A stretch of DNA of 64,000 nucleotides from an uncultured Solibacteraceae bacterium (GTDB lineage: Bacteria > Acidobacteriota > Terriglobia > 20CM-2-55-15). A model generated the notes under the pieces. The model saw only the letters and a program-made list of their open reading frames with translations, had not been told where the DNA came from and searched no databases. The translations under genes and the position numbers were made by a program. Positions 23,103 through 60,334 of this stretch are shown in pieces. The stretch is taken from the NCBI GenBank assembly GCA_964633285.1, contig CAZWGA010000028.1, positions 960 to 64,959 of the forward strand, given 5' to 3'. Within the stretch, counting starts at the first letter, position 1; each line of letters begins with the position of its first letter.

Positions 23103-26100
23103 ATGGCAGGAAGCCAGAAGAGACTGTTCCGAAGTGTCGCGTTCGCCATCACGGCGTTGCTGCTTGTTTCATCCTCGGCCTTGGCTCAACTGACATTGAA
23201 CAGTCTTACGGATACTTCGCCGGGCATCTCCTCGAATATCGCGCAGGTAGGTGCCGCATCCTTCACGCTTACGCTGAACGGTTCGGGCTTCACTTCGAAT
23301 TCCATCGCTCGCTTTGGATCGACCAATCTGGCGACGACGTTTGTCAGTGCGAACAGGCTGACCGCCCTCGTGCCGTCTTCTTTGCTCAAGACAACGGGTG
23401 CTCCGAGCATAACCGTAGTTGACGGTAACACGACATCGAACGCTCTCGCGTTCACCGTAACCTATCGCGCGGATGTCAACGGCAATGGAAGCGTGAACAT
23501 CGCTGACGCTTTGGTCATTGCGCTGTCATCCGGAGGACTTTTCAGACCTGCCGTGCCGGTCTCCCTCAGCGATGTGAATTTCAATGACGTCACCAGCATC
23601 GGTGATGCGCTCGTGCTCGCGCTTTTTACGGGTGGTGTTCGAACGAATCTGGATCGGCCGGCAATCACGTCGACCAGCGCTGTCGCTCCAGTTAACGCCG
23701 GCGATTCCATCACGCTGACAGGACCGGGATTTTCGCCGGCGGTTGGCGACAACGCCGTTGTTTTTTCCATGCTGGATGGCAGTTTCCTTTCGATTGCTCC
23801 GTCGAGCGTTACTACGGGATCCGGCGACAGGACGATGACAGTGACTGTTCCATCCGGCGCAGCCAGCGGCCCGGTATTCGTCAAGCGCAATGACGTCGAG
23901 GTTCCAGGCAGGCCGATTGTTATTCCAATCCAGGGATCCGTTGTTCCGGTTTACATCAGCAACGTCACGCCCAATGCGAATCTCCAACCCGGTACGACTT
24001 CGGTTACCTTAACCGGCAGCGGTTTCGATCCTACGCCTGCCAATAACGCGATCACATTTTCAGGACCGAACGGCACAATAATCACGACGACTGCGGCGAC
24101 GGCTTCAACGGTTTCGTTATCCGTCGTGGTTCCGGCACCGGCGATAAGCGGTTTCGTCTATGTCACTGTCAGCGGGCGCGAATCCAATCACAAATCGATT
24201 CTGTGTCAGGGAACACCGACCGTTCTCCGGCTGAATCAACTTTACTATCCCGATGTTGCGGGTGAGCCGGTCCTGATCGAGGGAACCGGTTTCAACTCGG
24301 CGGCGCCGTCGGATAATCAGGTTCTGTTCACTGCTCCGAACAGCAGCGAGGTGCAGGGACAAGTCGTGGCGGTTGGGAGAACGGAATTGATTGTTCTCGT
24401 TCCAGCCAACGCCATTACGGGAACGGTGAAGGTCAAGACGACCGGCGGCACGGTTACTTCGAACACGCTTGGTTTCACGGCCGCATCCGGATCAGGATCC
24501 AGGCCTCTTATTTCTTCCATCAATCCGGATTCCGGCACAGCGGGAACGACGGTTAATGTAACGATTACTGGAACGAATTTCGTTCCTGGTGCGACTACGG
24601 TCACGGCCGCGTCGACGGGAATCACGGTGACCGCTGTTAATGTTCCGAACGCAACTTCTCTCACTGCGAATCTCGTCATTCAGAGCTCAGCCGCTCTCGG
24701 TGCTACCAGTATCAGCGTGGTGACGACTGGTGGTTTGAGTTCCATAGCGTTTAATGTACTCGCACCGATCTCCACGATTCAGTTGCGCGATTCGGTAACA
24801 AGCAATTCAACAAACGAGTTTGTTGTGAATGCCGGTAATACGCTTCAAGTTGGAGTTCGAATTCTCGACAGCACCGGGCAGGAACGAACCGGCGTGCCGG
24901 TCCAGTACACGAGCTTGAATTCGGATATCGCTTCCATCGATGTAACCGGCCTCGTTCGCGGTCTTCGCGCCGGTTTTTCGACATTGACCGTGACGTCCGG
25001 TAACGCCGTGGCGACAGGAATCATCACGGTCGTGGAAGTCACGACGGGCAGCGCTGCGGACAACGTGTCGGGTATTGCGATCGACAGCAGCCAGCAGATT
25101 TATCTCGCGCTCACCTCCGATCAGACGATTCGCACAGGTCTGGATCTAACCCAGCCTGCTCAGATTTACGCCGGAATGTCGGGCTCTGCCGGCTTCAGCG
25201 ACAACGTGCGGCTGCAGTCGCTTTTCCGAAGTCCATCCTTTGTTGCACTGAATCAGGCGGACGGAACATTGTATGTCGCCGATTCCGGCAATCATCGGAT
25301 TCGCAGGATTACACCCGGACCCAACGGCCGCGTGGACACGATCGCAGGTACCGGCACTGCAGGATCGCAGGATGGCGCCGCTGCCTCTGCAACGTTCCGG
25401 AATCCGCAGGGAATTGCGTTGGATTCTGCCGGCTATCTCTGGGTTGCCGATACGGGAAACCACACGATCCGCAGAATCAACCTGACGGCACGAACCGTAC
25501 AGACAGTGGCCGGGTTGGCGGGAACATCAGGATCCACCGACGGAACCGGCACAGCCGCTCGATTCAACGGTCCAATTGGAATTGCGATCAGACCTGAAAC
25601 ACTGGCGGAAAGTCTCGATCGTTTGCGAAACGGTGGCGCTCCGCCTCCGATGACAGTCCTTGTGGCCGATACCGGCAACGGGTTGCTGCGCCGGGTGAAG
25701 GAAACCGGCGTGGTCGATACGCTTCAGGTAACGACGCCTGCGGCGACCCCTTTCATGAACGCGAGTATCAAACCCGCAATCCTTGCAGCGACTCCAATCG
25801 TTCCCGCTCCAACCGGTATTGCCGTGGACGCAGCCGGAAACATTTACGTGACGGACCCGGCTTCAGGGCAACTTGCCGTCCTGCTCGGCAATGGACAGAT
25901 TGTTCAAGCGACTCAGTCTGGAACATTCAGCGGGCCTCGTAGCGTGATCATCAGCCGGCTTGGAAGAATTCTGGTTGCGGATGCTGTGCGTACGCGCGAA
26001 CTCCACTACGGTGAGCCGCAAATCACAAGTCTCACCCCCGATCACGTTCCCACACAGGGCAACGTGACGATCACCGTTCGCGGGAACAACTTCTCCCCGG

Positions 26101-29100
26101 ATTCCATCGTTGTCGTTGGCGCCACCATCGTTTCCGGCGTGCATATAGACAACACGCAAACCCTGACGTTCACCATTCCTTTACTGCCGAGTGGCATCGC
26201 TACGCTCACTGTCCAGAATCGCGGAGGCCTGGCCCAACGGCCACTCTCGATCGATTCAATTCCATTGAGCAGCCTGCCTCCGGGCTATATCACTACGATT
26301 GCCGGTGGAACGACGTTCGTCGGCGATGGCTCTCAATTCACTTCTGCAACGCTCGGTCCGGCAAACATGGCCATGGACAGTTCGGGGAATCTATTCATCG
26401 CGGACTGGGCGAACAATCGTGTTCGAAGAGTCGATGCGCGAACGGGAGTGGTCACGACAGTCGCCGGCAACGGCAGCATCGATCTCAATGTCAATGACGG
26501 CGGGCCCGCTGTTGCCGCATCCCTTGCACATCCCGCCGGTGTTGCTGTCGATGCCTCAGGCAATCTCTACATTGCCGATGGAAGCGGGGATTATAGCGAT
26601 CTGAGAAGTCCGTCGGCCGCCCCCTATTTTGAGCACCGGCGAATTCGCAAGGTCAACGTGGTTACGGGAATCATCAGCAGCATGCTGGATTGCGTCCAGC
26701 CCTCATCCTGCCAGGACGACCAGGGGCTCGCGGCGAATGCGCTGACGGTCGACGCCGCCGGCAACATCTACTTCATCGGAGCAAGCGGAGGCAACGCCGT
26801 TAATAAGGTTGCAGCGGCGACAGGAGTCGTGACGACCATTGCCGGCAATCCGTTTAGTCCCGGTTACTCAGGAGACAATGGTCCGGCGTCAGCGGCCCTG
26901 TTGAACGTGCCCAGTTCGCTGGCCACGGACACGGCAGGCAATCTTTACATCGCAGACTCCAGTAACGACAGGATCCGCAAAATCGATGCCGCCACGGGAA
27001 TCATCTCAACAGTAGCCGGCGGCAGCACTCTGACTTTTGATGGTGCCCTGGCCACTCAATCCAAACTCTACACTCCAACATCGATTGCGATCGACAAAGA
27101 CGGCAACCTTTATATAGGGGAATCCGGAAGAGGCCGAATCCGAAAAGTAAATGCGTCATCAGGAACCATCAGCACCGTCGCCGGCAACGGGACAGGATTT
27201 TCCGGTGACGGCGGACTTGCGTTGAGCGCGCAATTGGATCCTTCAGGCATTCTGCTGGATGCGTCGGGAGATCTGCTCATTGCGGAATTCAATAATCATC
27301 GAGTGCGTAAAGTGACGTCTAGGAATGGAACAGTCAACACCCTGGGCGGCACAGGTGAAAGCAACTACTCGGGCACGGGAGGTCCGGCCATTGCTGCAAC
27401 TCTCAGCCTTCCGTGGGACATTACATTCGATCAGTCCGGAAACTTGTATGTTGCCGAAGTTGAAAACAATCAGATTCGGAAGGTCAGCGCGGATACAGGA
27501 GCCATCAGCGTTGTGGCTGGGATGGGTCTGGCAGCTTTTTCAGGGGATAACGGTCCGGCAACTGCGGCAGCGTTAAGTTTTCCGTATGGAATCGCCATGG
27601 ACTTGGGAGGAAATCTCTTCATTGCCGATACCTGGAACTCCAGAATCCGAAAGATTGCTGCATCGACGGGAACCATTACGACTGTTGCCGGAACCGGTGA
27701 GTTTGCATATTCGGGAGACAACGGTCCCGCGATCTCTGCCGTACTCAATAAACCGATTTCCGTCGCGGTCGATTCAGCCGGCAATCTTTTTATAGCAGAC
27801 ACCGGCAACAACAAGGTTCGAAAGATTGCCGCCGCCAACGGAACCATCACAACAATTGCAGACCTGACCTCATCGCCTCAGTACGTCGCACTCGATCCTG
27901 CTGGAAACATTTACGTGGCAATGTATGGTGGAATTCTCAAGATCGCCGCGGGGACCGGTGTCGTCACGCAAGTGCCCAACAGCACCGGGTTCTATGTAAA
28001 CGCAATCCGATTCGATTCAGCCGGTAACCTTTTCTTCTCGGACTTCACGAACCGCGTTCGCCGGATAGGCACAGATGGAAGCATTGTCACGGTGGCAGGC
28101 AACGGCGCCGCTACGACCGTGCAGCGCAACGGCGTCACGAACGCGGCGGTAGGGGACAACGGTCCGGCGCGAAACGCTACTCTAGACATGCCTTCAGGGA
28201 TGGCTTTCGATAGCGCTGGAAATCTGTTTATTGTCGATGCCTACAACCAGCGTGTTCGTGCTGTGCGCGGCCCCGTCCCATCGAGTCCTGCTGTAGCGCA
28301 GTTGGCGATCGTCTCCGGCAACAACCAAACGGCGCAGATCGGCGCGGTATTGCCACAGCCTCTCATAGTCGAGGCGCGGGATCAGAATGGAAACACGTTA
28401 ACGGGTATCGGTGTCACGTTCTCCGTTACCAGCGGTGGTGGCTCTGTCGATCCTTCAATGCGGGAGATTACCGCATCGAACGGCCGTGCGTTGGTAACGG
28501 CAACGCTCGGAACGTCTCCCGGAACTGCGCTGTTCTCGGCATCGGTGAATGGAATTCCGGCGGTAGTCTTTTCCGCGACGGCAACGGCCGCTTCCAGTTC
28601 AATTCCAACACTGACTTCGATCAGTCCCGGTTCCGGCACGCAGGGCAACACGATTTCAGTGACCCTGACGGGCAACGGTTTTGTGACAGGTAACACCGTA
28701 GTAACAGCCGGCGGCAGTGGGGTTGTGGTAAGCCGCGTGACGGTGACGAACGCCAATTCCTTGTCGGCGACTCTCGTGCTCTCCGGGCCGGCGGGTAGCC
28801 GAAGCGTTGCTGTCAGAACGCCGGGCGGAACAAGCGGAAACGTTTCCTTCACGGTTATTGCCGGCACGTTGTCTTCCGCAACAGCTTTCAATGTGACGAC
28901 GCCTTACGGACTTGCAACTCAGCTTGGCACCGCCGATGGAACGGGCACTGCAGCGCGATTCAGTGCTCCCCGCGGGATCTGGAGCGACGGCGCTAATCTT
29001 TACGTTGCCGACACGAACAATTACGCCATCCGGAAAATAAATCTGACGACCGGCGCCGTTACGACCCTTGCCGGCTTGAAGGGCACTGCGGGATCTGCGG

Positions 29101-31109
29101 ATGGAACCGGTACCGCAGCGCGTTTTGTCTATCCCGGCGCGATCTGGGGCGATGGACTGAACCTTTATGTCGCCGATTCGGTCACGATTCGGAAAGTTGT
29201 GCTCAGTTCCGGAGTTGTGACGACACTGGCAGGACAGGCAGGCGCCCTTGGCTCGGCCGACGACACAGGAACTGCGGCGCGATTCTTGGGCATCAGCGGA
29301 CTTTGGGGTGACAACAACAATCTCTACATTGCGGATGCCGGTAACAATACGATTCGAAAAATGAATCTTTCGAGTCTTGCGGTCACAACAGTAGCCGGCG
29401 ATCCGGGAACACCTGCGATGGTTGATGGCGCCGCGACAGATGCGCGATTCAGTCAACCCAATGGACTCTGGAGTGACGGTGCGAACCTTTTCATTTCGGA
29501 TTATGCCAATCACGCGATCCGGAAAATGAACATTGTGTCGGGTAACGTTTCAACCGTAGCCGCTTACTATGCCTTTAATGGTCCGGCGGGCTTGTGGGGC
29601 GATGGAGTCAACCTTTACGTTCTGGAATCGGCAAACAACATCGTCAGTCAGATTGTTCTCTCAACGGCCGCAGTCTCAATAATAGCCGGACAATCCGGAA
29701 TTAACGGCAGTGCAGATGGTTCTGGCTCTGCTGCGAGATTCTGGAGTCCGAACGGCATTTGGGGCGATGGCGGCCGGCTCTATGTTGCCGACACGGGGAA
29801 TTCCACAATTCGAAAACTGGATACCGTCGTTCTTGCGCCCGCGATTTCGGCAATCACGCCGTTTACCGGTTCCCGTGGAACGACGATATCGGCGAACCTG
29901 ACAGGCACGTATTTTCTCGGCGCAACGGCGGTGACATTCAGCGGAACAGGTGTAACCGGAACCATCCTGGGTGGCGGTACCGCAACGAACCTGCCGATAT
30001 CGATTGCCATTTCCGCGGACACGGCTGAAAGTGTCCGGACCATCACCGTCCATACATCGGCTGGAACATCTGCGGTATTCACAGGATTCACGATCAGTCC
30101 CGTGGCATGGCAGGTCTCAAATCCGGGTTTGCCCGCGGGTGTGACGATCAACTCCATCTGGGCGAGAAACCGGAATGATGCATTCGTCTGGGGTGCGCGC
30201 AACATACCCAACACAACGACGCCGGAAAGTTATCTCTATCATTGGAACGGCGCGGCGTGGAGCCAGGCGTTCTATCTCGCCAGTGCTTCGGCGATCAGTG
30301 TCTTCGGCACGGGCGCTTCAGAGGTTTGGATTTCGGCGTTCTCGACGACGGCGAACGCAAGCGTTGTCTATCGTTCCGTGAATAGCGGCGTCAATTGGAC
30401 ACAGCAGACTTTACCTGCCGCGATCGGCTCCGCAAGAGTAGGCAGCCTGACGGGGACTCCGAACAATATTCATGCCAGCGGGGCGGGGAATCAGATCATC
30501 CGTTTCAATGGAACGAGTTGGTCTGCTCTTAATGCCGGCGGAATTCAAAACAATGATCCCCCTGGTCCGATAGTCGTCAACAGCGCTACTGAGGGCTATT
30601 ACACGACATGCCATGGTTTCGGATTCTGGGATGGCACAAGCTGGGCCTACATTTCAAATGGATGGGATTTTTGCAACGTCAGTCAAATCTGGGGCACACC
30701 CACATATCTGCATACGGCTGGAGACAATAGTTCTTCGAATGGCGTTCGCGTCTGGAGACAGACCGGTCCAACGAACTTCAGCCAGACGCCGGTTCTCGCC
30801 GATCCTAATGATGGACCCTTGCAAGGTGGATATTTGTGCGGCACGGGCCAATACGGGACCGCAACGGGTTTGTGGGGTTCTGGCGGAAGCGACATCTGGG
30901 TCAGCGGCCGGCTTGGCGTGAGTCCGACGGACTGCACACCAACGGGGCGTCTCTATCACTACAACGGAACCGCATGGAGCAATATCACCTCACTAGTTCC
31001 CGCTATTGTGGGAAATCCATTGCCGGCCGTTACAGCGCTTACCGGAACAGCATCCGATGACGTCTGGATCGCGTTGGCCGATGGCCGCGTTTTGCGATTC
31101 ACGCGTTGA
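23103..31109 (+). CDS. 2668-aa secreted multidomain surface protein: IPT/TIG repeats, dockerin-like EF-hand pair, Ig-like domains, three NHL beta-propellers, C-terminal W-G-S-x-x-x-D-x-W propeller
   Basis: Sec signal. DVNGNGSVNIAD and DVNFNDVTSIGD loops. Repeated 'ISSINP..G..G..V..TGTNF' IPT units. Many 'LYVAD..N..IRKI...G...TVAG' NHL repeats. GLWGSGGSDIW and TGTASDDVW at the C-terminus. Confidence 0.88.
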   Translation: MAGSQKRLFRSVAFAITALLLVSSSALAQLTLNSLTDTSPGISSNIAQVGAASFTLTLNGSGFTSNSIARFGSTNLATTFVSANRLTALVPSSLLKTTGAPSITVVDGNTTSNALAFTVTYRADVNGNGSVNIADALVIALSSGGLFRPAVPVSLSDVNFNDVTSIGDALVLALFTGGVRTNLDRPAITSTSAVAPVNAGDSITLTGPGFSPAVGDNAVVFSMLDGSFLSIAPSSVTTGSGDRTMTVTVPSGAASGPVFVKRNDVEVPGRPIVIPIQGSVVPVYISNVTPNANLQPGTTSVTLTGSGFDPTPANNAITFSGPNGTIITTTAATASTVSLSVVVPAPAISGFVYVTVSGRESNHKSILCQGTPTVLRLNQLYYPDVAGEPVLIEGTGFNSAAPSDNQVLFTAPNSSEVQGQVVAVGRTELIVLVPANAITGTVKVKTTGGTVTSNTLGFTAASGSGSRPLISSINPDSGTAGTTVNVTITGTNFVPGATTVTAASTGITVTAVNVPNATSLTANLVIQSSAALGATSISVVTTGGLSSIAFNVLAPISTIQLRDSVTSNSTNEFVVNAGNTLQVGVRILDSTGQERTGVPVQYTSLNSDIASIDVTGLVRGLRAGFSTLTVTSGNAVATGIITVVEVTTGSAADNVSGIAIDSSQQIYLALTSDQTIRTGLDLTQPAQIYAGMSGSAGFSDNVRLQSLFRSPSFVALNQADGTLYVADSGNHRIRRITPGPNGRVDTIAGTGTAGSQDGAAASATFRNPQGIALDSAGYLWVADTGNHTIRRINLTARTVQTVAGLAGTSGSTDGTGTAARFNGPIGIAIRPETLAESLDRLRNGGAPPPMTVLVADTGNGLLRRVKETGVVDTLQVTTPAATPFMNASIKPAILAATPIVPAPTGIAVDAAGNIYVTDPASGQLAVLLGNGQIVQATQSGTFSGPRSVIISRLGRILVADAVRTRELHYGEPQITSLTPDHVPTQGNVTITVRGNNFSPDSIVVVGATIVSGVHIDNTQTLTFTIPLLPSGIATLTVQNRGGLAQRPLSIDSIPLSSLPPGYITTIAGGTTFVGDGSQFTSATLGPANMAMDSSGNLFIADWANNRVRRVDARTGVVTTVAGNGSIDLNVNDGGPAVAASLAHPAGVAVDASGNLYIADGSGDYSDLRSPSAAPYFEHRRIRKVNVVTGIISSMLDCVQPSSCQDDQGLAANALTVDAAGNIYFIGASGGNAVNKVAAATGVVTTIAGNPFSPGYSGDNGPASAALLNVPSSLATDTAGNLYIADSSNDRIRKIDAATGIISTVAGGSTLTFDGALATQSKLYTPTSIAIDKDGNLYIGESGRGRIRKVNASSGTISTVAGNGTGFSGDGGLALSAQLDPSGILLDASGDLLIAEFNNHRVRKVTSRNGTVNTLGGTGESNYSGTGGPAIAATLSLPWDITFDQSGNLYVAEVENNQIRKVSADTGAISVVAGMGLAAFSGDNGPATAAALSFPYGIAMDLGGNLFIADTWNSRIRKIAASTGTITTVAGTGEFAYSGDNGPAISAVLNKPISVAVDSAGNLFIADTGNNKVRKIAAANGTITTIADLTSSPQYVALDPAGNIYVAMYGGILKIAAGTGVVTQVPNSTGFYVNAIRFDSAGNLFFSDFTNRVRRIGTDGSIVTVAGNGAATTVQRNGVTNAAVGDNGPARNATLDMPSGMAFDSAGNLFIVDAYNQRVRAVRGPVPSSPAVAQLAIVSGNNQTAQIGAVLPQPLIVEARDQNGNTLTGIGVTFSVTSGGGSVDPSMREITASNGRALVTATLGTSPGTALFSASVNGIPAVVFSATATAASSSIPTLTSISPGSGTQGNTISVTLTGNGFVTGNTVVTAGGSGVVVSRVTVTNANSLSATLVLSGPAGSRSVAVRTPGGTSGNVSFTVIAGTLSSATAFNVTTPYGLATQLGTADGTGTAARFSAPRGIWSDGANLYVADTNNYAIRKINLTTGAVTTLAGLKGTAGSADGTGTAARFVYPGAIWGDGLNLYVADSVTIRKVVLSSGVVTTLAGQAGALGSADDTGTAARFLGISGLWGDNNNLYIADAGNNTIRKMNLSSLAVTTVAGDPGTPAMVDGAATDARFSQPNGLWSDGANLFISDYANHAIRKMNIVSGNVSTVAAYYAFNGPAGLWGDGVNLYVLESANNIVSQIVLSTAAVSIIAGQSGINGSADGSGSAARFWSPNGIWGDGGRLYVADTGNSTIRKLDTVVLAPAISAITPFTGSRGTTISANLTGTYFLGATAVTFSGTGVTGTILGGGTATNLPISIAISADTAESVRTITVHTSAGTSAVFTGFTISPVAWQVSNPGLPAGVTINSIWARNRNDAFVWGARNIPNTTTPESYLYHWNGAAWSQAFYLASASAISVFGTGASEVWISAFSTTANASVVYRSVNSGVNWTQQTLPAAIGSARVGSLTGTPNNIHASGAGNQIIRFNGTSWSALNAGGIQNNDPPGPIVVNSATEGYYTTCHGFGFWDGTSWAYISNGWDFCNVSQIWGTPTYLHTAGDNSSSNGVRVWRQTGPTNFSQTPVLADPNDGPLQGGYLCGTGQYGTATGLWGSGGSDIWVSGRLGVSPTDCTPTGRLYHYNGTAWSNITSLVPAIVGNPLPAVTALTGTASDDVWIALADGRVLRFTR

Positions 31110-55330: not shown

Positions 55331-56017
55331 CTACTCCCAGCAAAATGTATCGTTTTCGAACATCAACACCTTACCGGACACTTCGTTCGCAAACTGCGCG
55401 TAGTGCGTCACCACAATTTGCGTCATGCCTTCGTTATTGAGTTCGCGCATGACGTTGAACACTTCGTCCACGAGTTGCGGATCGAGCGCGGAAGTGGGTT
55501 CATCGTAGAGCATGACATCGGGAGACATGGCCAGACTGCGCGCAATGGCAACGCGCTGTTGCTGGCCTCCCGAAAGCTGCGAAGGATAGGAATCGATTTT
55601 CTGCGCCAGACCCACGCGATCGAGGATGCGCTTCGCCATCGACGCGGCCTCCTTCGGATTCATCTTCTTGACCTGCACGGGCGCGAGCGTGACGTTTTCA
55701 AGGGCCGTCAGATGCGGAAAGAGATTGAAACTCTGGAAGACCATGCCGGTCTTCGATCTCATTTTCTGGAGCGCGGTTTTCTTCTCCGCCGGCAGGTGTT
55801 GCGATTCGCCGTTGGACCACCGCACGCTCAACTCACCGATCGTGATTTCGCCGCTGTCGAAGAGCTCGAGAAAATTGATGCACCGCAACAGCGTGGATTT
55901 TCCGCAGCCGGACGGCCCTCTGATGACAGTGAGTCTGCCGTGTGGAAACTCGAGGGAAAGATCTTTGAAGAGATTGTGGTTGCCGAACGTTTTCGTCAGG
56001 CCTTTGATCTTGACCAC
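55331..56017 (-). CDS. polar amino acid ABC transporter ATP-binding subunit (GlnQ-like), orphan
   Basis: GPSGCGKS, VFQSFNLFPH, LSGGQQQR, DEPTSALDP and VTH motifs. The GTG start at 56017 was chosen to minimise overlap; the track start is 56095. Confidence 0.9.
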   Translation of the reverse strand: MVKIKGLTKTFGNHNLFKDLSLEFPHGRLTVIRGPSGCGKSTLLRCINFLELFDSGEITIGELSVRWSNGESQHLPAEKKTALQKMRSKTGMVFQSFNLFPHLTALENVTLAPVQVKKMNPKEAASMAKRILDRVGLAQKIDSYPSQLSGGQQQRVAIARSLAMSPDVMLYDEPTSALDPQLVDEVFNVMRELNNEGMTQIVVTHYAQFANEVSGKVLMFENDTFCWE

Positions 56018-56580
56018 CGGGAATTGGCGCTCGCGCTCCTTAATAGGATTTTCTGCTGGCTTTCTTTCGCGTTGAATCCGATAGCATACGGACAAAAGAT
56101 ATTCGCGCGTTTCGCGCGCGAGAATTCATCCAGATAGTAACCGCCGATTCGAAAATGATAATCGTCCACGGTGCCTGACAAAGTTCCATCGCCGTTGTAT
56201 TGCCACGCGCTCGTGCGGCGTTTGTCATTCGCAACGATAATCAAATAGAGATTTCCTGGAATCATGTCGACAACATCCTGAGTGCTGAGATTGCCGACGC
56301 CCTTTAATTCTCCCCAGCCTGTATGCGAGTGAAAATCTCCGACCAGCGACAAATGCGGCAGATTTGCCAGAAACTTTTCCATTCGCCGCGACGCGCGGCC
56401 GTTTTTCTCAACGCTGGTGTGGCGGCGATTCGCGGTCTGATAAGAAACCGCGTGCTCGACAACATAGATATTGCTGCTGTCGCGATATCCAAGAAGCAGG
56501 CCGAAACATTCCTTCTTGTAAACTTCGATCGCCGAAATCAGGAGTGCCCAGAATGCGTTGGATGAAATATATACTTCCAT
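55996..56580 (-). CDS. JAB/MPN (JAMM) metalloprotease-like protein
   Basis: Catalytic-type E in ECFGLLLG and GDFHSH-x12-S-x2-D. Own -10 TAGAAT upstream. Confidence 0.8.
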   Translation of the reverse strand: MEVYISSNAFWALLISAIEVYKKECFGLLLGYRDSSNIYVVEHAVSYQTANRRHTSVEKNGRASRRMEKFLANLPHLSLVGDFHSHTGWGELKGVGNLSTQDVVDMIPGNLYLIIVANDKRRTSAWQYNGDGTLSGTVDDYHFRIGGYYLDEFSRAKRANIFCPYAIGFNAKESQQKILLRSASANSRWSRSKA

Positions 56581-56658
56581 GTATCACCCGATTGACCCCG
56601 CGATTCTAGCCGTTTCCGGCACTCATTGGGAACGTCCTTTTTCGTTAAATTTCGGCCC

Positions 56659-56689
56659 AAAAAATAAGGGCCGCTGGATAGCGGCCCTT
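56659..56689 (-). terminator. Rho-independent terminator downstream of the 15-aa ORF
   Basis: 10-bp stem AAGGGCCGCT (56666-75) / AGCGGCCCTT (56680-89), followed on the minus strand by ATTTTTT. Confidence 0.85.
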
Positions 56690-56730
56690 CTTTAATCTCG
56701 GTCTTCGCGCCTAGTTTTTATACGTTTTTG

Positions 56731-56778
56731 TTACTTCTTTTTTGTGGCTTTCTTTTTCTTTGCTGGAGCTTTCTTCAT
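56731..56778 (-). CDS. lysine-rich micropeptide MKKAPAKKKKATKKK (15 aa)
   Basis: ATG...TAA with AAGGAG SD 6 nt upstream. It is the only ORF between a strong promoter and a terminator. Confidence 0.65.
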   Translation of the reverse strand: MKKAPAKKKKATKKK

Positions 56779-56844
56779 CTTTTTCTCCTTCGTTTTTGAT
56801 TTGGGCCTCACAACATCTTGAGGCCGTTACTAACTATTGCCGCT

Positions 56845-56873
56845 AGTATTGTGGTGAAAGTTTTCCCTGTCAA
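56845..56873 (-). promoter_or_regulatory. sigma70 promoter TTGACA-N17-AATACT
   Basis: Consensus -35 (56868-56873), 17-nt spacer and -10 at 56845-56850. Confidence 0.75.
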
Positions 56874-56907: not shown

Positions 56908-57927
56908 TTAGGGATATTGGTAGTAACCCTTCCGGTGAAGAGTCTTCAGATTGTTCCCGGCGATCTGCACTTCGATATTTCGGAAGACGGGTCCCGGACC
57001 GAATAATTCATTATTCGAGATAAAGCCAAGGACGTACTGATTCCGGGCTTCCTCTGTCGCGGTCGCATACGATCTTTCGATGTTCAGAATGGAGTTGACA
57101 AAGTACACATCGCCTCCAGTCGTTTTTGCATACTGATCCAGGACTGACGCTATCCGCATTGGAAAAGGCTGATCGAGGCCGATGGCGTAGACCTGAACAC
57201 CCTGTTCGAGAAGACGCTGCGCGGTTTCATCGAAGGAATGATCGCTTCCCGCCGATTGCCCATCGGAGATAACGAGAACAATCTTTCGCCGGCTGCGTTC
57301 GCGTTTGGAAAGATCGGCCGCGGCCGTAAAAATCGCATCGTGAAGAACGCGAACATTTCTTTGCGGGCGCGAAGCTCCTGGGCCAATCACCTGCACGGAG
57401 GGAATGACGGGCGCGCCGTTGATCACCGGGCCCGGTGTGGAGAAAGGTCCGCGCGGAACGCTGGGATCGGCATTGGCATCAGGTTTGAGGGCGCGCAATG
57501 TATTCATTGCGGTTTCGACAAGATTGTTGTCGTGGGAGAAATCGAGAACTTTCGTCACGAATTTGCTGTAGCTGTAAACGGCAATTTCGTCGGATTCACT
57601 GAACGCGCCGGCAAGCGCCGGAAATGTTTTTTGAACTTTTGAGAGCGATCCTGCAGCGAGGCCTGTATCGACGACGACGGCTGCCGACAACGGAACCGGA
57701 TCGGCGGTGAAATTGGAAATCGTTTGACGTCTGCCGTCTTCGAGAATGACGAAATCGCCCTTCTGCAAACCGGCAATGAGTTTGCCGCTGTCGCCTTTGA
57801 CGGTAACCGGCACAACGACAAGATCGACTTTGGCGCGGATTTTGAAATCCTGCGCTGATGCCGCGGCGACCAACAGCAGGAGCGCAAGCACCAGGAGTTT
57901 GACAGCAATCCTAATTCTTGGGCGCAT
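56908..57927 (-). CDS. VWA domain protein (acidobacterial type)
   Basis: KVDLVVVPVTVK, DFVILEDG, VVVDTG, ISDGQ, KTTGG, RNQYVLGF and HRKGYY motifs. AGGAAGG SD before ATG 57927. Confidence 0.88.
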   Translation of the reverse strand: MRPRIRIAVKLLVLALLLLVAAASAQDFKIRAKVDLVVVPVTVKGDSGKLIAGLQKGDFVILEDGRRQTISNFTADPVPLSAAVVVDTGLAAGSLSKVQKTFPALAGAFSESDEIAVYSYSKFVTKVLDFSHDNNLVETAMNTLRALKPDANADPSVPRGPFSTPGPVINGAPVIPSVQVIGPGASRPQRNVRVLHDAIFTAAADLSKRERSRRKIVLVISDGQSAGSDHSFDETAQRLLEQGVQVYAIGLDQPFPMRIASVLDQYAKTTGGDVYFVNSILNIERSYATATEEARNQYVLGFISNNELFGPGPVFRNIEVQIAGNNLKTLHRKGYYQYP

Positions 57928-58912
57928 AATAACCCTTCCTTGCCTTGACTGTATAACTGGAGTCCCTCGCCACGATTTTGATCGAACGATACCGGCCATC
58001 GTGCGCGGTGTTCGTGGAGAAATAACCGAGACTGTACTGGCTGCGGAGTTCCTGCGAGATTTGATCGAAGATCCTTTTGAAATTGTTTTCGTCGTTCACG
58101 ATAAAAGTGGAGCCGCCGGTTTCGTCGGAGAACTTTTTCAGCGTATTGATATCGCCGAAGCCACCGCCGCCTCCTCCTCCACCGGGGCCGCCTCTTCGGC
58201 CGCGCCTTCCATACTGGAAGAATCCTTCGCGAACACTATTTGAAATTCCGTAAATGACCGAGTCGCTTTGATGCGCAGCGATGAGTGCTTCGCCGAACTT
58301 GACTTTGCTCGTTGTGTCTTCACCATCGCTGATGAGGATGATCGCTTTGCGTCCCAGTTCTCCTTTGAGTTTCTCCCTTCCCGCCAGGTAGACGGCATCA
58401 TAGAGGGATGTACCGCACGTAGAACAAAAGTCGCCTGATACCGGGATCTCCAGTTCATTGATGGCGCGCTTGAGCGACTTGGTATCGTCGGTGTAGTCCT
58501 GGACCAAAGTTACAGAACGATCAAATCCGATGACAAGCACAAGATCCTTAGGCTGCAAGGCGGAATCCAGAAATGCTCCCGCCATGATCTTTTCTTCGTC
58601 AAACACGCGCCGGACGCTGGGGCTGGTGTCGATCAGCATGGCCAGGGTCAGCGGTAATTCGTTTTCTTTCGAGAAGTTCCGAATTTCCTGGCGGCGGCCG
58701 TCTTCTTCTACAAGAAAGTCGCGCGCGGTGAGTCCCGGAACAAATCTGCCGTGGCGATCCCTGACGGAGAACGAAACGTTGACGAGCTCGACGCGGACCT
58801 TCAACGTATCCTGGCTGGACTGAGACGGATAAAGCGAACGCCCTGCAAATTCAATGCTTGTCAGGACGCTGAGAAGCAGGATCAGAGCGGGACCGCGCTT
58901 CATTCGCCTCAT
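57911..58912 (-). CDS. VWA domain protein (acidobacterial type) with Gly/Arg-rich insertion
   Basis: VELVNVSFSVRD, DTSPS, GTSLYDAV, ISDGED, ETGG, ELRSQYSLGY and ARKGYY motifs. The start is uncertain (58903/58912/58921). Confidence 0.9.
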   Translation of the reverse strand: MRRMKRGPALILLLSVLTSIEFAGRSLYPSQSSQDTLKVRVELVNVSFSVRDRHGRFVPGLTARDFLVEEDGRRQEIRNFSKENELPLTLAMLIDTSPSVRRVFDEEKIMAGAFLDSALQPKDLVLVIGFDRSVTLVQDYTDDTKSLKRAINELEIPVSGDFCSTCGTSLYDAVYLAGREKLKGELGRKAIILISDGEDTTSKVKFGEALIAAHQSDSVIYGISNSVREGFFQYGRRGRRGGPGGGGGGGGFGDINTLKKFSDETGGSTFIVNDENNFKRIFDQISQELRSQYSLGYFSTNTAHDGRYRSIKIVARDSSYTVKARKGYYAPKN

Positions 58913-58942
58913 GCCGCTCATGTTATCATGCCCATTTGTGTA

Positions 58943-60334
58943 ATGAGACTGACGAACACCCTCACAGGTAACCAGGAAACATTCGAGCCGCAGGACGGAA
59001 AAACTGTCCGCATGTACACCTGCGGGCCCACGGTTTACAACTACGTTCATATCGGGAATCTGAGGACATATGTGTTCGAAGATCTCCTGCGCCGGCATCT
59101 GTTGAGCAAGTGGCAGCTTCGTCACGTGATGAACATCACGGACATCGACGACAAGATCATCAACAAGTCCATCGAGACCGGCGAAGACATCCGCTCCTAC
59201 ACCGCTCCATTCACGAAAGCGTTCTTCGAGGACTGCGCAAAACTGCGGATTGAGAAGCCTGAGCTCATCACGCCGGCGACGGAATATATTGCCGAGATGA
59301 TCGATATTGTGAAGCGGTTGCTTGATGAGGGCTTCGCGTATCGCGAAGGTGATTCGATTTACTTCCGCATTTCTCGATTTCCGAATTACGGCCGGCTCTC
59401 ACGCCTCGACCGCCGCGAGCTCAAGATCGGCGCGCGCATCGATGCCGACGAATATGAAAAGGAAGAGCCTCGCGATTTCGTTTTATGGAAAGCGCCGAAG
59501 GATCCGCGCGAGCCGCGATGGCAGGCGCCGTTTGGTGAAGGGCGCCCGGGATGGCATCTCGAATGTTCCGCAATGGCGATGAAGCATCTCGGCGAGACAC
59601 TCGATATCCACTGCGGCGGCGTCGACAACATCTTCCCGCATCACGAAAACGAAATCGCTCAAAGTGAAGCCGTGACGGGACGGCCTTTCGTCCGCTTCTG
59701 GATTCACGGCGAACATCTGCTCGTCGAAGGCGAGAAGATGGCGAAATCCAAAGGCAATTTCTTTACGCTCCGCGATTTGATCGAGCGCGGCCACGATCCC
59801 ATAGCAATTCGCTATGCCCTGGTTCAGGTGCCTTATCGCAAGCAGATGAACTTTACGTTTGATGGTCTCGCCGCCGCGAAAGTCGCGCTCGACCGGATCG
59901 TGGAATTTCTGTTCCAGTTGCATTCGGCGAATCCTGCGGATGGATCCAGCGAGGCTGTTGCCGGTGCCGTCAGGGAAGCCGATCAGGATTTTGAAGCTGC
60001 GCTCGACGACGACCTCAATACGGCACGGGCGCTGGCCGCGGTGTTCGACTTGATCAAGAAGTGCAATACCGCTCTCGTTGAGCGCGCTTTAAAGAAGGAT
60101 GACCGGGAATCGGTTTTCAATTTCTTCAAAAAAGTCGACCAGAGACTGGCGATCGTTCCTCCAATGGAACATCTATTGCAAGGCGATCAGGAGATCGAGG
60201 CGCTCATTGCGCAGCGAAATGAAGCCCGGAGAAATCGTGACTTTGCGCTCTCCGATAAGCTGCGTCAGGCATTACTCGATCGCGGCGTTGTTATCGAAGA
60301 TACGCGGGAGGGCACGAGGTGGCGGCGAAAGTAG
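58943..60334 (+). CDS. cysS: cysteine--tRNA ligase
   Basis: YTCGPTVY, HIGN (HIGH motif), DFVLWK, GRPGWHLECSAM, FPHHENE and KMAKS (KMSKS variant). Confidence 0.98.
   Translation: MRLTNTLTGNQETFEPQDGKTVRMYTCGPTVYNYVHIGNLRTYVFEDLLRRHLLSKWQLRHVMNITDIDDKIINKSIETGEDIRSYTAPFTKAFFEDCAKLRIEKPELITPATEYIAEMIDIVKRLLDEGFAYREGDSIYFRISRFPNYGRLSRLDRRELKIGARIDADEYEKEEPRDFVLWKAPKDPREPRWQAPFGEGRPGWHLECSAMAMKHLGETLDIHCGGVDNIFPHHENEIAQSEAVTGRPFVRFWIHGEHLLVEGEKMAKSKGNFFTLRDLIERGHDPIAIRYALVQVPYRKQMNFTFDGLAAAKVALDRIVEFLFQLHSANPADGSSEAVAGAVREADQDFEAALDDDLNTARALAAVFDLIKKCNTALVERALKKDDRESVFNFFKKVDQRLAIVPPMEHLLQGDQEIEALIAQRNEARRNRDFALSDKLRQALLDRGVVIEDTREGTRWRRK

Follow-up and report, generated by a model that had tools for sequence, protein, structure and literature searches.

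A conserved mini-gene for a lysine-rich micropeptide beside VWFA genes of Acidobacteriota and its possible role as a free polycation

A mini-gene for a very short lysine-rich peptide lies on the minus strand of a 64,000-nucleotide stretch of DNA from an uncultured Solibacteraceae bacterium (GenBank assembly GCA_964633285.1, contig CAZWGA010000028.1, positions 960 to 64,959), referred to here as the window. The unit fits completely into the 327-nt gap between a gene for a secreted VWFA protein and a gene for a JAB-type protease, and its open reading frame (ORF) specifies 15 residues, nine of them lysine. There is little doubt that this peptide is encoded by a self-contained, transcribed and translated mini-gene and is not a chance ORF, since promoter, hairpin, Shine-Dalgarno (SD) sequence, reading frame and terminator are kept in hundreds of related loci. 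As for function, the favoured reading is that the peptide works as a polyanion-binding polycation, which, argued from analogy, is given a probability of about 0.5.

The −35 hexamer TTGACA (56868-56873) stands inside the conserved block cTTGACAGGGAAAA and is separated by 17 nt from the −10 hexamer AATACT (56845-56850); this spacing puts the predicted transcription start near 56838. The promoter scores 10 out of 12 and is the sole match to CTTGACA-N17-WATAMT in the whole window, compared with none in 100 shuffles. Close to the 5′ end of the transcript lies the stem-loop GGCCUCA-N8-UGAGGCC (56804-56825), which is present in the minimum-free-energy (MFE) and centroid folds, is recovered in the consensus structure of five loci, and probably serves as a protective, mRNA-stabilising hairpin. 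The SD sequence AAGGAG (56785-56790) is placed 6 nt 5′ of the ATG at 56778, and the micro-ORF MKKAPAKKKKATKKK occupies 56731-56778 with 15 codons and a stop. The intrinsic terminator (56658-56689) begins 41 nt past the stop codon; its stem AAGGGCCGCU/AGCGGCCCUU (56689-56666) has 10 bp, seven of them GC, closed by the four-nucleotide loop AUCC and followed by the U-tract, ATTTTTT in the DNA. The predicted transcript is about 180 nt long, and its fold comprises the 5′ hairpin, a weak pairing between the SD and a GCUCC segment of the ORF, the terminator and nothing else. Lysine makes up 60% (9/15) of the peptide, against a 99.9th percentile of 25% for the 2,835 small ORFs of the window, whose GC content is 55.6%. 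Promoter, hairpin, SD, start codon, ORF and terminator had all been named by the original prediction, and each is present on the minus strand at these positions.

Conservation is clearest in the MKKAP subfamily, the group of units that includes the window's own. In alignment A1, promoter, hairpin, SD, ORF, a 3′ untranslated region (UTR) segment and terminator are all conserved; the −35 TTGACA and the −10 AATACT are invariant, and the ORF varies at third codon positions only, with ATG alternating with GTG at the start. Four genomes whose VWFA protein is only 66-70% identical to that of the window encode the identical 15-mer. A metagenome scan was baited with the 3′ UTR motif and not with the ORF, and reached at least 120 contigs. 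Among the matches listed, a K-rich ORF stands just 5′ of the motif in 117 of 130 instances; 11 full-context instances have no such ORF, namely nine chance matches in unrelated coding sequences and the contigs L091 and L159 discussed below, and two more stop at the contig end.

The 15-residue peptide is specified, without any change, by 41 distinct nucleotide versions, which differ at third positions, between ATG and GTG starts and between TAA and TAG stops. Eleven of the 14 sense codons after the start vary, solely at position 3, and all four bases are seen at the third position of Ala11 and of Thr12. Variant peptides differ by in-frame K/A/T/G substitutions or indels (e.g. MKKAPAKKKKAAKKKK, MKKAPKKKAAKKKKK, MKKAPAKKAAKKGGKKK). 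Nei-Gojobori estimates of pN/pS are 0.13 in the 48-nt class and, in three further length classes, 0.23-0.34; pS itself is already close to saturation. Among the 87 unique metagenome units in the matches listed, the −35 hexamer is at least 90% conserved, and compensatory changes in the terminator (GC→AU, AU→UA, CG→UA) preserve the stem. Synonymous-only change, in-frame indels and interchangeable starts and stops, all while the nucleotides drift, indicate a micropeptide family held by purifying selection on its amino-acid sequence. A conserved SD, a short K-rich ORF and a terminator, with synonymous variation of the Lys codons, had been proposed as the pattern to look for in related genomes, and this pattern is found.

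The architecture reaches much further than the alignable nucleotides. Loci whose VWFA protein is only 33-38% identical show the same arrangement although their nucleotides are unalignable: cTTGACA-N17-TATAnn, a GC-rich hairpin opening a 60-95-nt 5′ UTR, GGAG(G), a K-rich ORF of 13-18 codons and a GC-rich terminator. In every subfamily a stable hairpin comes straight after the predicted start and a terminator closes the unit, each with a different sequence, and GGAG or GGAGG stands at comparable spacing in related units (an SD was required in the scans of distant loci). The distant set comprises 87 loci, 80 further species-level loci anchored on one distant VWFA orthologue plus seven earlier ones. 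Sixty-two of these orthologous VWFA loci contain the lysine-rich unit (K unit), with the strict promoter TTGAC[AT]-N17-TATAnn in 53 of the 62. In the Acidoferrum-type group, MKKKGKKDEAKGPKKGK is constant over VWFA identities from 100% to 73%, and the Lys-codon variation is again synonymous. The original prediction had claimed a stand-alone unit with a translated poly-lysine micropeptide as its only product and had fixed beforehand that homologous loci losing the frame or the SD would speak for a non-coding RNA (ncRNA); homologous loci retain SD, start, frame and stop despite nucleotide drift, and the claim holds.

The K unit also behaves as a separate entity. Six loci (L269, L273, L276, L278, L279, L280) carry the complete unit flipped with respect to VWFA, which indicates that it is autonomous. 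At 25 of the 87 orthologous loci (e.g. L228, L230, L231) it is cleanly absent, and one of these has a VWFA 88% identical to that of a carrier. In this it resembles a discrete cassette able to flip or be lost, and an accessory role would suit so uneven a distribution among close relatives.

Overall, the unit lies 3′ of an orthologous TIGR03436 VWFA gene in about 70 Acidobacteriota genomes at species level and in at least 117 contigs from soil metagenomes. Carrier labels include gp5 and gp2 metagenome-assembled genomes (MAGs), Solibacteraceae, Sulfopaludibacter, Acidoferrum/Acidiferrales, Sulfotelmatobacter and Acidobacteriaceae, and the loci closest to that of the window are Acidobacteriota MAGs labelled gp5. 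As judged from these sequences, the family is spread through Acidobacteriota, in class Terriglobia and relatives. One MAG, MFD00031.bin.2.7, has two loci with VWFA and K unit (L237, L240) on separate contigs, and an A10T change distinguishes their peptides, reflecting either genuine paralogy or a mixture of strains in the bin. Contigs with VWFA and K unit, or with VWFA, also occur in bins labelled Clostridia, Dormiibacterota, Verrucomicrobiia, Udaeobacter, Betaproteobacteria, Saccharimonadales, Dongiaceae and Methylomirabilota (L004, L011, L013, L067, L236, L271, L281, L290, L291, L295). These off-phylum labels are probably the result of mis-binning.

Peptide composition provides the main clue to function. 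Across 47 distinct peptides of 13-22 residues (alignment A3), the family consensus is MKKKxKKxxxKxPKKGK, and the residues are K 56%, A 13%, G 8%, P 6%, D+E 7% and R 0.1%. F, W, Y, L, I and C are missing from all 47, and none has a signal peptide. All terminate in K, and their side chains carry a net charge of +7 to +11. Thirty-eight of the 47 have P(x)KK and 11 have PAKK. PAKK/KAAK motifs are DNA-binding determinants of the mycobacterial HupB tail and of H1/H5, and HupB cannot bind DNA without its H1/H5-type tail (PMC5676037). The H1-like protein AlgP is reported to organise polyphosphate granules (PMC9239181). Binding of DNA or another polyanion is favoured because the K-only, A/G/P-rich composition and the PAKK/xPKK motifs match H1/H5-type tails.

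A sequence of steps can be proposed on this basis. A near-consensus sigma-70-type promoter would drive an mRNA carrying the 5′ hairpin, a strong SD, the 15-codon ORF and the intrinsic terminator, and the peptide would be produced in large amounts. High expression is expected from the consensus −35, the 17-nt spacing, the strong SD, the Lys/Ala second codon, the 5′ hairpin and the strong terminator. The peptide would act in the cytoplasm, as suggested by the lack of a signal peptide and of hydrophobic residues. It would be free and disordered, a polycation amounting to a K/A/P tail of the histone-H1/HupB type delivered in trans. Through its P(x)KK turns it would attach to DNA, at the backbone and the minor groove, or else to some other polyanion, for instance polyphosphate or RNA. 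Binding would neutralise charge and favour compaction or the formation of condensates. The same transcript might, in the MKKAP subfamily, have a second, regulatory-RNA role through the 3′ motif.

This motif, UAGGCGCGAAGACCGAGAU (56695-56713), is 19 nt long, predicted to be single-stranded and located 5 nt 5′ of the terminator. It is conserved in A1 save for one A/G change while synonymous sites of the ORF vary freely, which points to selection at the nucleotide level. Six of six genomes retrieved with a peptide-only pattern also have it, and it is confined to the MKKAP subfamily. The exact 19-nt motif TAGGCGCGAAGACCGAGAT additionally lies 3′ of other tiny units in the metagenome contigs L091 and L159, 8-10 nt before an unrelated terminator hairpin. 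In L091 (minus strand, about 250 nt into the reverse-complemented locus) the motif is preceded by an SD and an 18-residue Cys-rich ORF, MGCSCKTIDMCYISVRFM; in L159 (1500-1700) it is preceded by a stretch resembling a small RNA (sRNA) with a 2-codon ORF only. This recurrence suggests a 3′ RNA module common to sibling small transcripts, in the manner of an sRNA seed or a protein-binding element used by several RNAs, and the MKKAP transcript may double as a base-pairing or protein-binding regulatory RNA. The conservation of the 3′ UTR motif keeps the option of a "translated sRNA". The unit has an autonomous promoter, an intrinsic terminator and a transcript within the roughly 100-300 nt by which dual-function sRNAs are defined, and its small ORF counts as translated on evolutionary evidence (synonymous-only variation, pN/pS 0.13-0.34). 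A 13-nt complement of the motif at 24959-24971 was set aside as a target; it lies deep inside a 2,668-residue ORF and is probably a chance match. That ORF (23103-31109, plus strand) would itself encode a giant protein.

A second RNA-level feature lies within the ORF. Codons 3-5 (AAA GCT CCA; 56764-56772, minus strand) show no synonymous change in any of the 41 versions. The GCUCC within codons 4-5 (56765-56769) complements the SD core GGAG and partly the GGCGC of the 3′ motif, and the SD/CUCC pairing appears in the predicted fold. The 5′ UTRs of another subgroup (L259, L261, L263-L265, L272, L277) contain AGAGGG ... CUCCCUC ... GAGGGAG, the last being the SD, and minimum-energy folds of such 5′ UTRs alternate between pairing of the anti-SD with the SD and pairing of the 5′ end with the anti-SD. 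This three-part arrangement could be a translational on/off switch. Taken with the frozen codons and their pairing with the SD, it indicates that translation of the micro-ORF is probably regulated. A −1 frameshift had been raised by the original prediction from the slippery heptamer A-AAA-AAG. The heptamer exists in the window, but only 24 of 84 units have A_AAA_AAG in frame, its position takes four different values, and no two −1 products agree, so frameshifting is rejected; the accompanying remark that no stimulatory structure is evident agrees with the predicted fold, which has none downstream of the heptamer.

The widest formulation combines these elements into a "genetic polyamine": a dedicated, highly expressed oligolysine peptide of 13-22 residues, an H1/HupB tail in trans, that would tune nucleoid, polyphosphate or RNA condensation and would come from a bifunctional transcript whose 3′ regulatory RNA module is common to sibling small RNAs. 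As a whole this formulation is tentative and less likely than not.

Several points weigh against the polycation reading or its RNA extension. The binding partner is deduced from composition alone. In the Acidoferrum-type subfamily an acidic pair (KKDE, KKDD) is conserved, as are G/P positions, which hints at a specific partner and not at generic charge neutralisation. The absence at 25 of 87 loci means, as far as these loci go, that the unit is dispensable or relocatable. The homology between MKKAP and MKKKxKK peptides is argued from synteny, architecture and low-complexity similarity. HupB- and AlgP-type tails are repeats of 50-100 or more residues fused to a folded DNA-binding domain and not free 15-mers. 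The likeness to H1-like proteins drawn by the original prediction thus stands for composition and for P(x)KK, but not for a long repeat array on a folded domain, as the ORF is free-standing, and it amounts to a resemblance. For the 3′ motif, no target beyond shuffle expectation was found in the 64-kb window: with RNAduplex, the best energy over 76 translation-initiation regions was −23.8, and shuffled seeds gave a best of −22.2 ± 1.9.

The micropeptide might instead be a lineage-specific small ribosomal protein or ribosome-bound factor that binds rRNA, like bS22, bL37 or bTHX. Its size and charge are like those of the known overlooked basic ribosomal micro-proteins, and a strong promoter, a strong SD and a stable mRNA would suit an abundant product. 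Known small rRNA-binding ribosomal proteins are of mixed R/K composition or R-rich, whereas these peptides are essentially Arg-free, and such scarcity of Arg where the genome is GC-rich speaks against a protein embedded in rRNA. It is compatible with H1-like dynamic binding or with a Lys-specific process such as codon sensing or modification. Sequence conservation between subfamilies is poor, and the unit is missing from 25 of the 87 orthologous loci, including relatives with 88% VWFA identity. Profile searches of NCBIfam, Pfam and PDB with padded peptides, 22-residue peptides and the family alignment gave no match, these tools being weak at such length, and full-text literature searches brought up no description of such a peptide gene. 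A ribosomal role is considered unlikely.

A different possibility, and an improbable one, places the main activity in the RNA, with translation acting as a sensor. Here the 3′ motif would be the effector, the Lys-codon ORF would couple RNA stability or activity to the supply of Lys-tRNA or ribosomes, and the peptide would be secondary, as in rnTrpL/peTrpL. Lys is used strictly and Arg essentially never, in spite of the GC-rich genome, and nine of 15 codons are of one kind. Leader ORFs such as pheL and hisL are likewise dominated by one codon kind. The conserved 3′ motif, which adjoins the terminator and is shared with other small units, the SD-sequestering GCUCC and the three-part switch of the other subgroup would all fit such a sensor. 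However, purifying selection acts on the non-Lys residues (A, P, T, G, D, E) as well, and a sensor of codons alone would have no need of that; the 3′ motif is limited to one subfamily whereas the ORF is universal; and the window yielded no target for the motif.

The neighbouring genes bear on the next alternative. The two genes upstream of the micro-gene both code for secreted TIGR03436 "acidobact_VWFA" proteins. The adjacent one (56908-57999, minus strand) matches TIGR03436 with 148 bits and has a Pfam VWA domain and a signal peptide. VWFA lies upstream in 87 of 87 MKKAP units among the matches listed and in the distant subfamily as well, and it is the constant syntenic anchor of the micro-gene. 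The further one (57911-59125, minus strand) was called mechanically as a 404-residue ORF that overlaps the divergent CysS ORF (58751-60334, plus strand); its true start is probably an internal one giving the signal peptide MSGMRRMKRG..., and the protein has a glycine run, GGPGGGGGGGGFG. In one relative (L002, 5090-5180) an additional terminator-like hairpin separates the K-unit promoter from the stop codon of VWFA; where there is no such hairpin, as in most loci, VWFA transcription could run on into the K unit.

Downstream in the window come an intact JAMM/MPN+ metalloprotease gene of the JAB type (55996-56580, minus strand), which has a promoter-like site of its own, and then an ABC ATPase gene. 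Among the matches listed, a co-oriented JAB gene follows in 85 of 85 MKKAP units and an ABC gene in 82 of 85. JAB is not downstream in the distant subfamily, and the gene that follows the unit in the Acidoferrum-type subfamily is convergent; an AddA-like helicase-nuclease comes after it. The VWA-JAB placement given by the original prediction is therefore half general: VWFA upstream is constant, JAB downstream belongs to the MKKAP subfamily only. A functional link to JAB was rejected, as JAB adjoins the unit in that one subfamily.

In the window's lineage the unit could be taken for a classical leader-peptide attenuator of the downstream JAB-ABC genes. A short ORF rich in a single codon (9/15 Lys) with an intrinsic terminator some 40 nt further on is what defines such a leader, and the co-oriented genes would be its object. 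No antiterminator was found: none appears in the MFE or consensus folds, and the best alternative fold with the 3′ arm of the terminator removed reaches only −5 to −6 kcal/mol. JAB has a promoter-like site of its own and is not a lysine-pathway gene, and the unit is conserved even where the next gene is convergent or the unit is inverted. Lacking an antiterminator and a cognate amino-acid operon, and with a downstream gene that is convergent or unrelated, attenuation is very unlikely and was rejected.

The weakest alternative, an ncRNA with a fortuitous ORF or an opposite-strand gene for a Phe/Leu-rich hydrophobic peptide, is hardly credible: the transcript does have sRNA-like dimensions, and one plus-strand frame (ORF 56744-56821, MAFFFFAGAFFIFF...) shares its wobble positions with the K-ORF, AAR↔TTY being silent on both strands, so that the synonymous pattern alone cannot discriminate sense from antisense, but across 124 units neither start nor length nor sequence of the antisense frames is conserved and just 1-4 of about 100 units per frame show an SD, promoter and U-tract lie on the K strand, start, stop, frame and SD of the K-ORF outlast complete nucleotide turnover across subfamilies, and Rfam gave only tRNA matches at the gathering threshold for the window and 15 related loci, the best sub-threshold hits in the region having E-values of 0.1-7. 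Both the antisense ORF and the pure ncRNA were rejected on these grounds.

Few bacteria are as abundant in soil as Acidobacteriota, and to our knowledge their small proteome is essentially unexplored. The micropeptides appear to form a new small-protein family of a known kind, either small basic proteins encoded by small ORFs or dual-function small transcripts. A 15-codon micro-gene escapes gene callers, yet this one shows some of the clearest protein-level selection obtainable for so short an ORF. Should the peptide prove to be a free polycation that binds DNA, polyphosphate or RNA, it would represent a new class of nucleoid or condensate modulator and a tractable model, for which a synthetic 15-mer suffices, of H1-like K/A/P motifs without a folded anchor. 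If the "genetic polyamine" formulation is correct, few conserved gene products of bacteria that play a stoichiometric structural role would be as short. The phylum would equally gain something new if the unit turned out to be a Lys-sensing dual-function RNA or to encode a ribosomal micro-protein. For annotators, the search pattern is TTGAC[AT]-N17-TATAnn, a 5′ hairpin, GGAG, M[KA]KK...K followed by a stop, and a terminator.

Compared with known systems, the unit combines features of several classes. Leader peptides (pheL, hisL, thrL and the Thermus lysine-cluster leader) likewise have about 15 codons dominated by one amino acid and followed by a terminator; the unit differs from attenuator leaders in having no antiterminator, no cognate biosynthetic operon and, in many lineages, a downstream gene that is convergent or absent. 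bS22, bL37 and bTHX are also very short, highly basic, overlooked by gene callers and probably abundant. Unlike them, the present family is virtually Arg-free, shows low conservation between lineages and no detectable similarity to them, and varies in presence among close relatives. Dual-function sRNAs (SgrS-SgrT, RNAIII-Hld, SR1-SR1P, Spot 42-SpfP, rnTrpL-peTrpL; review PMC12310071) share with it an autonomous transcript of about 180 nt, an intrinsic terminator and a tiny ORF, and the separately conserved single-stranded segment adjoining the terminator is a further likeness; the unit departs from them in that no base-pairing target was found in the window, the RNA motif occurs in one subfamily and Rfam has no match. 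H1-like tails, namely the HupB/MDP1 C-terminal domain, Pseudomonas AlgP and the PAKKA tail of Ku, have no counterpart to the central acidic pair carried by many members of the family. What the 47 peptides have in common with these tails (PMC5676037, PMC9239181, PMC3553676) is a large excess of K over R, richness in A, G and P, PAKK/KAAK/xPKK motifs, predicted disorder and a high positive charge.

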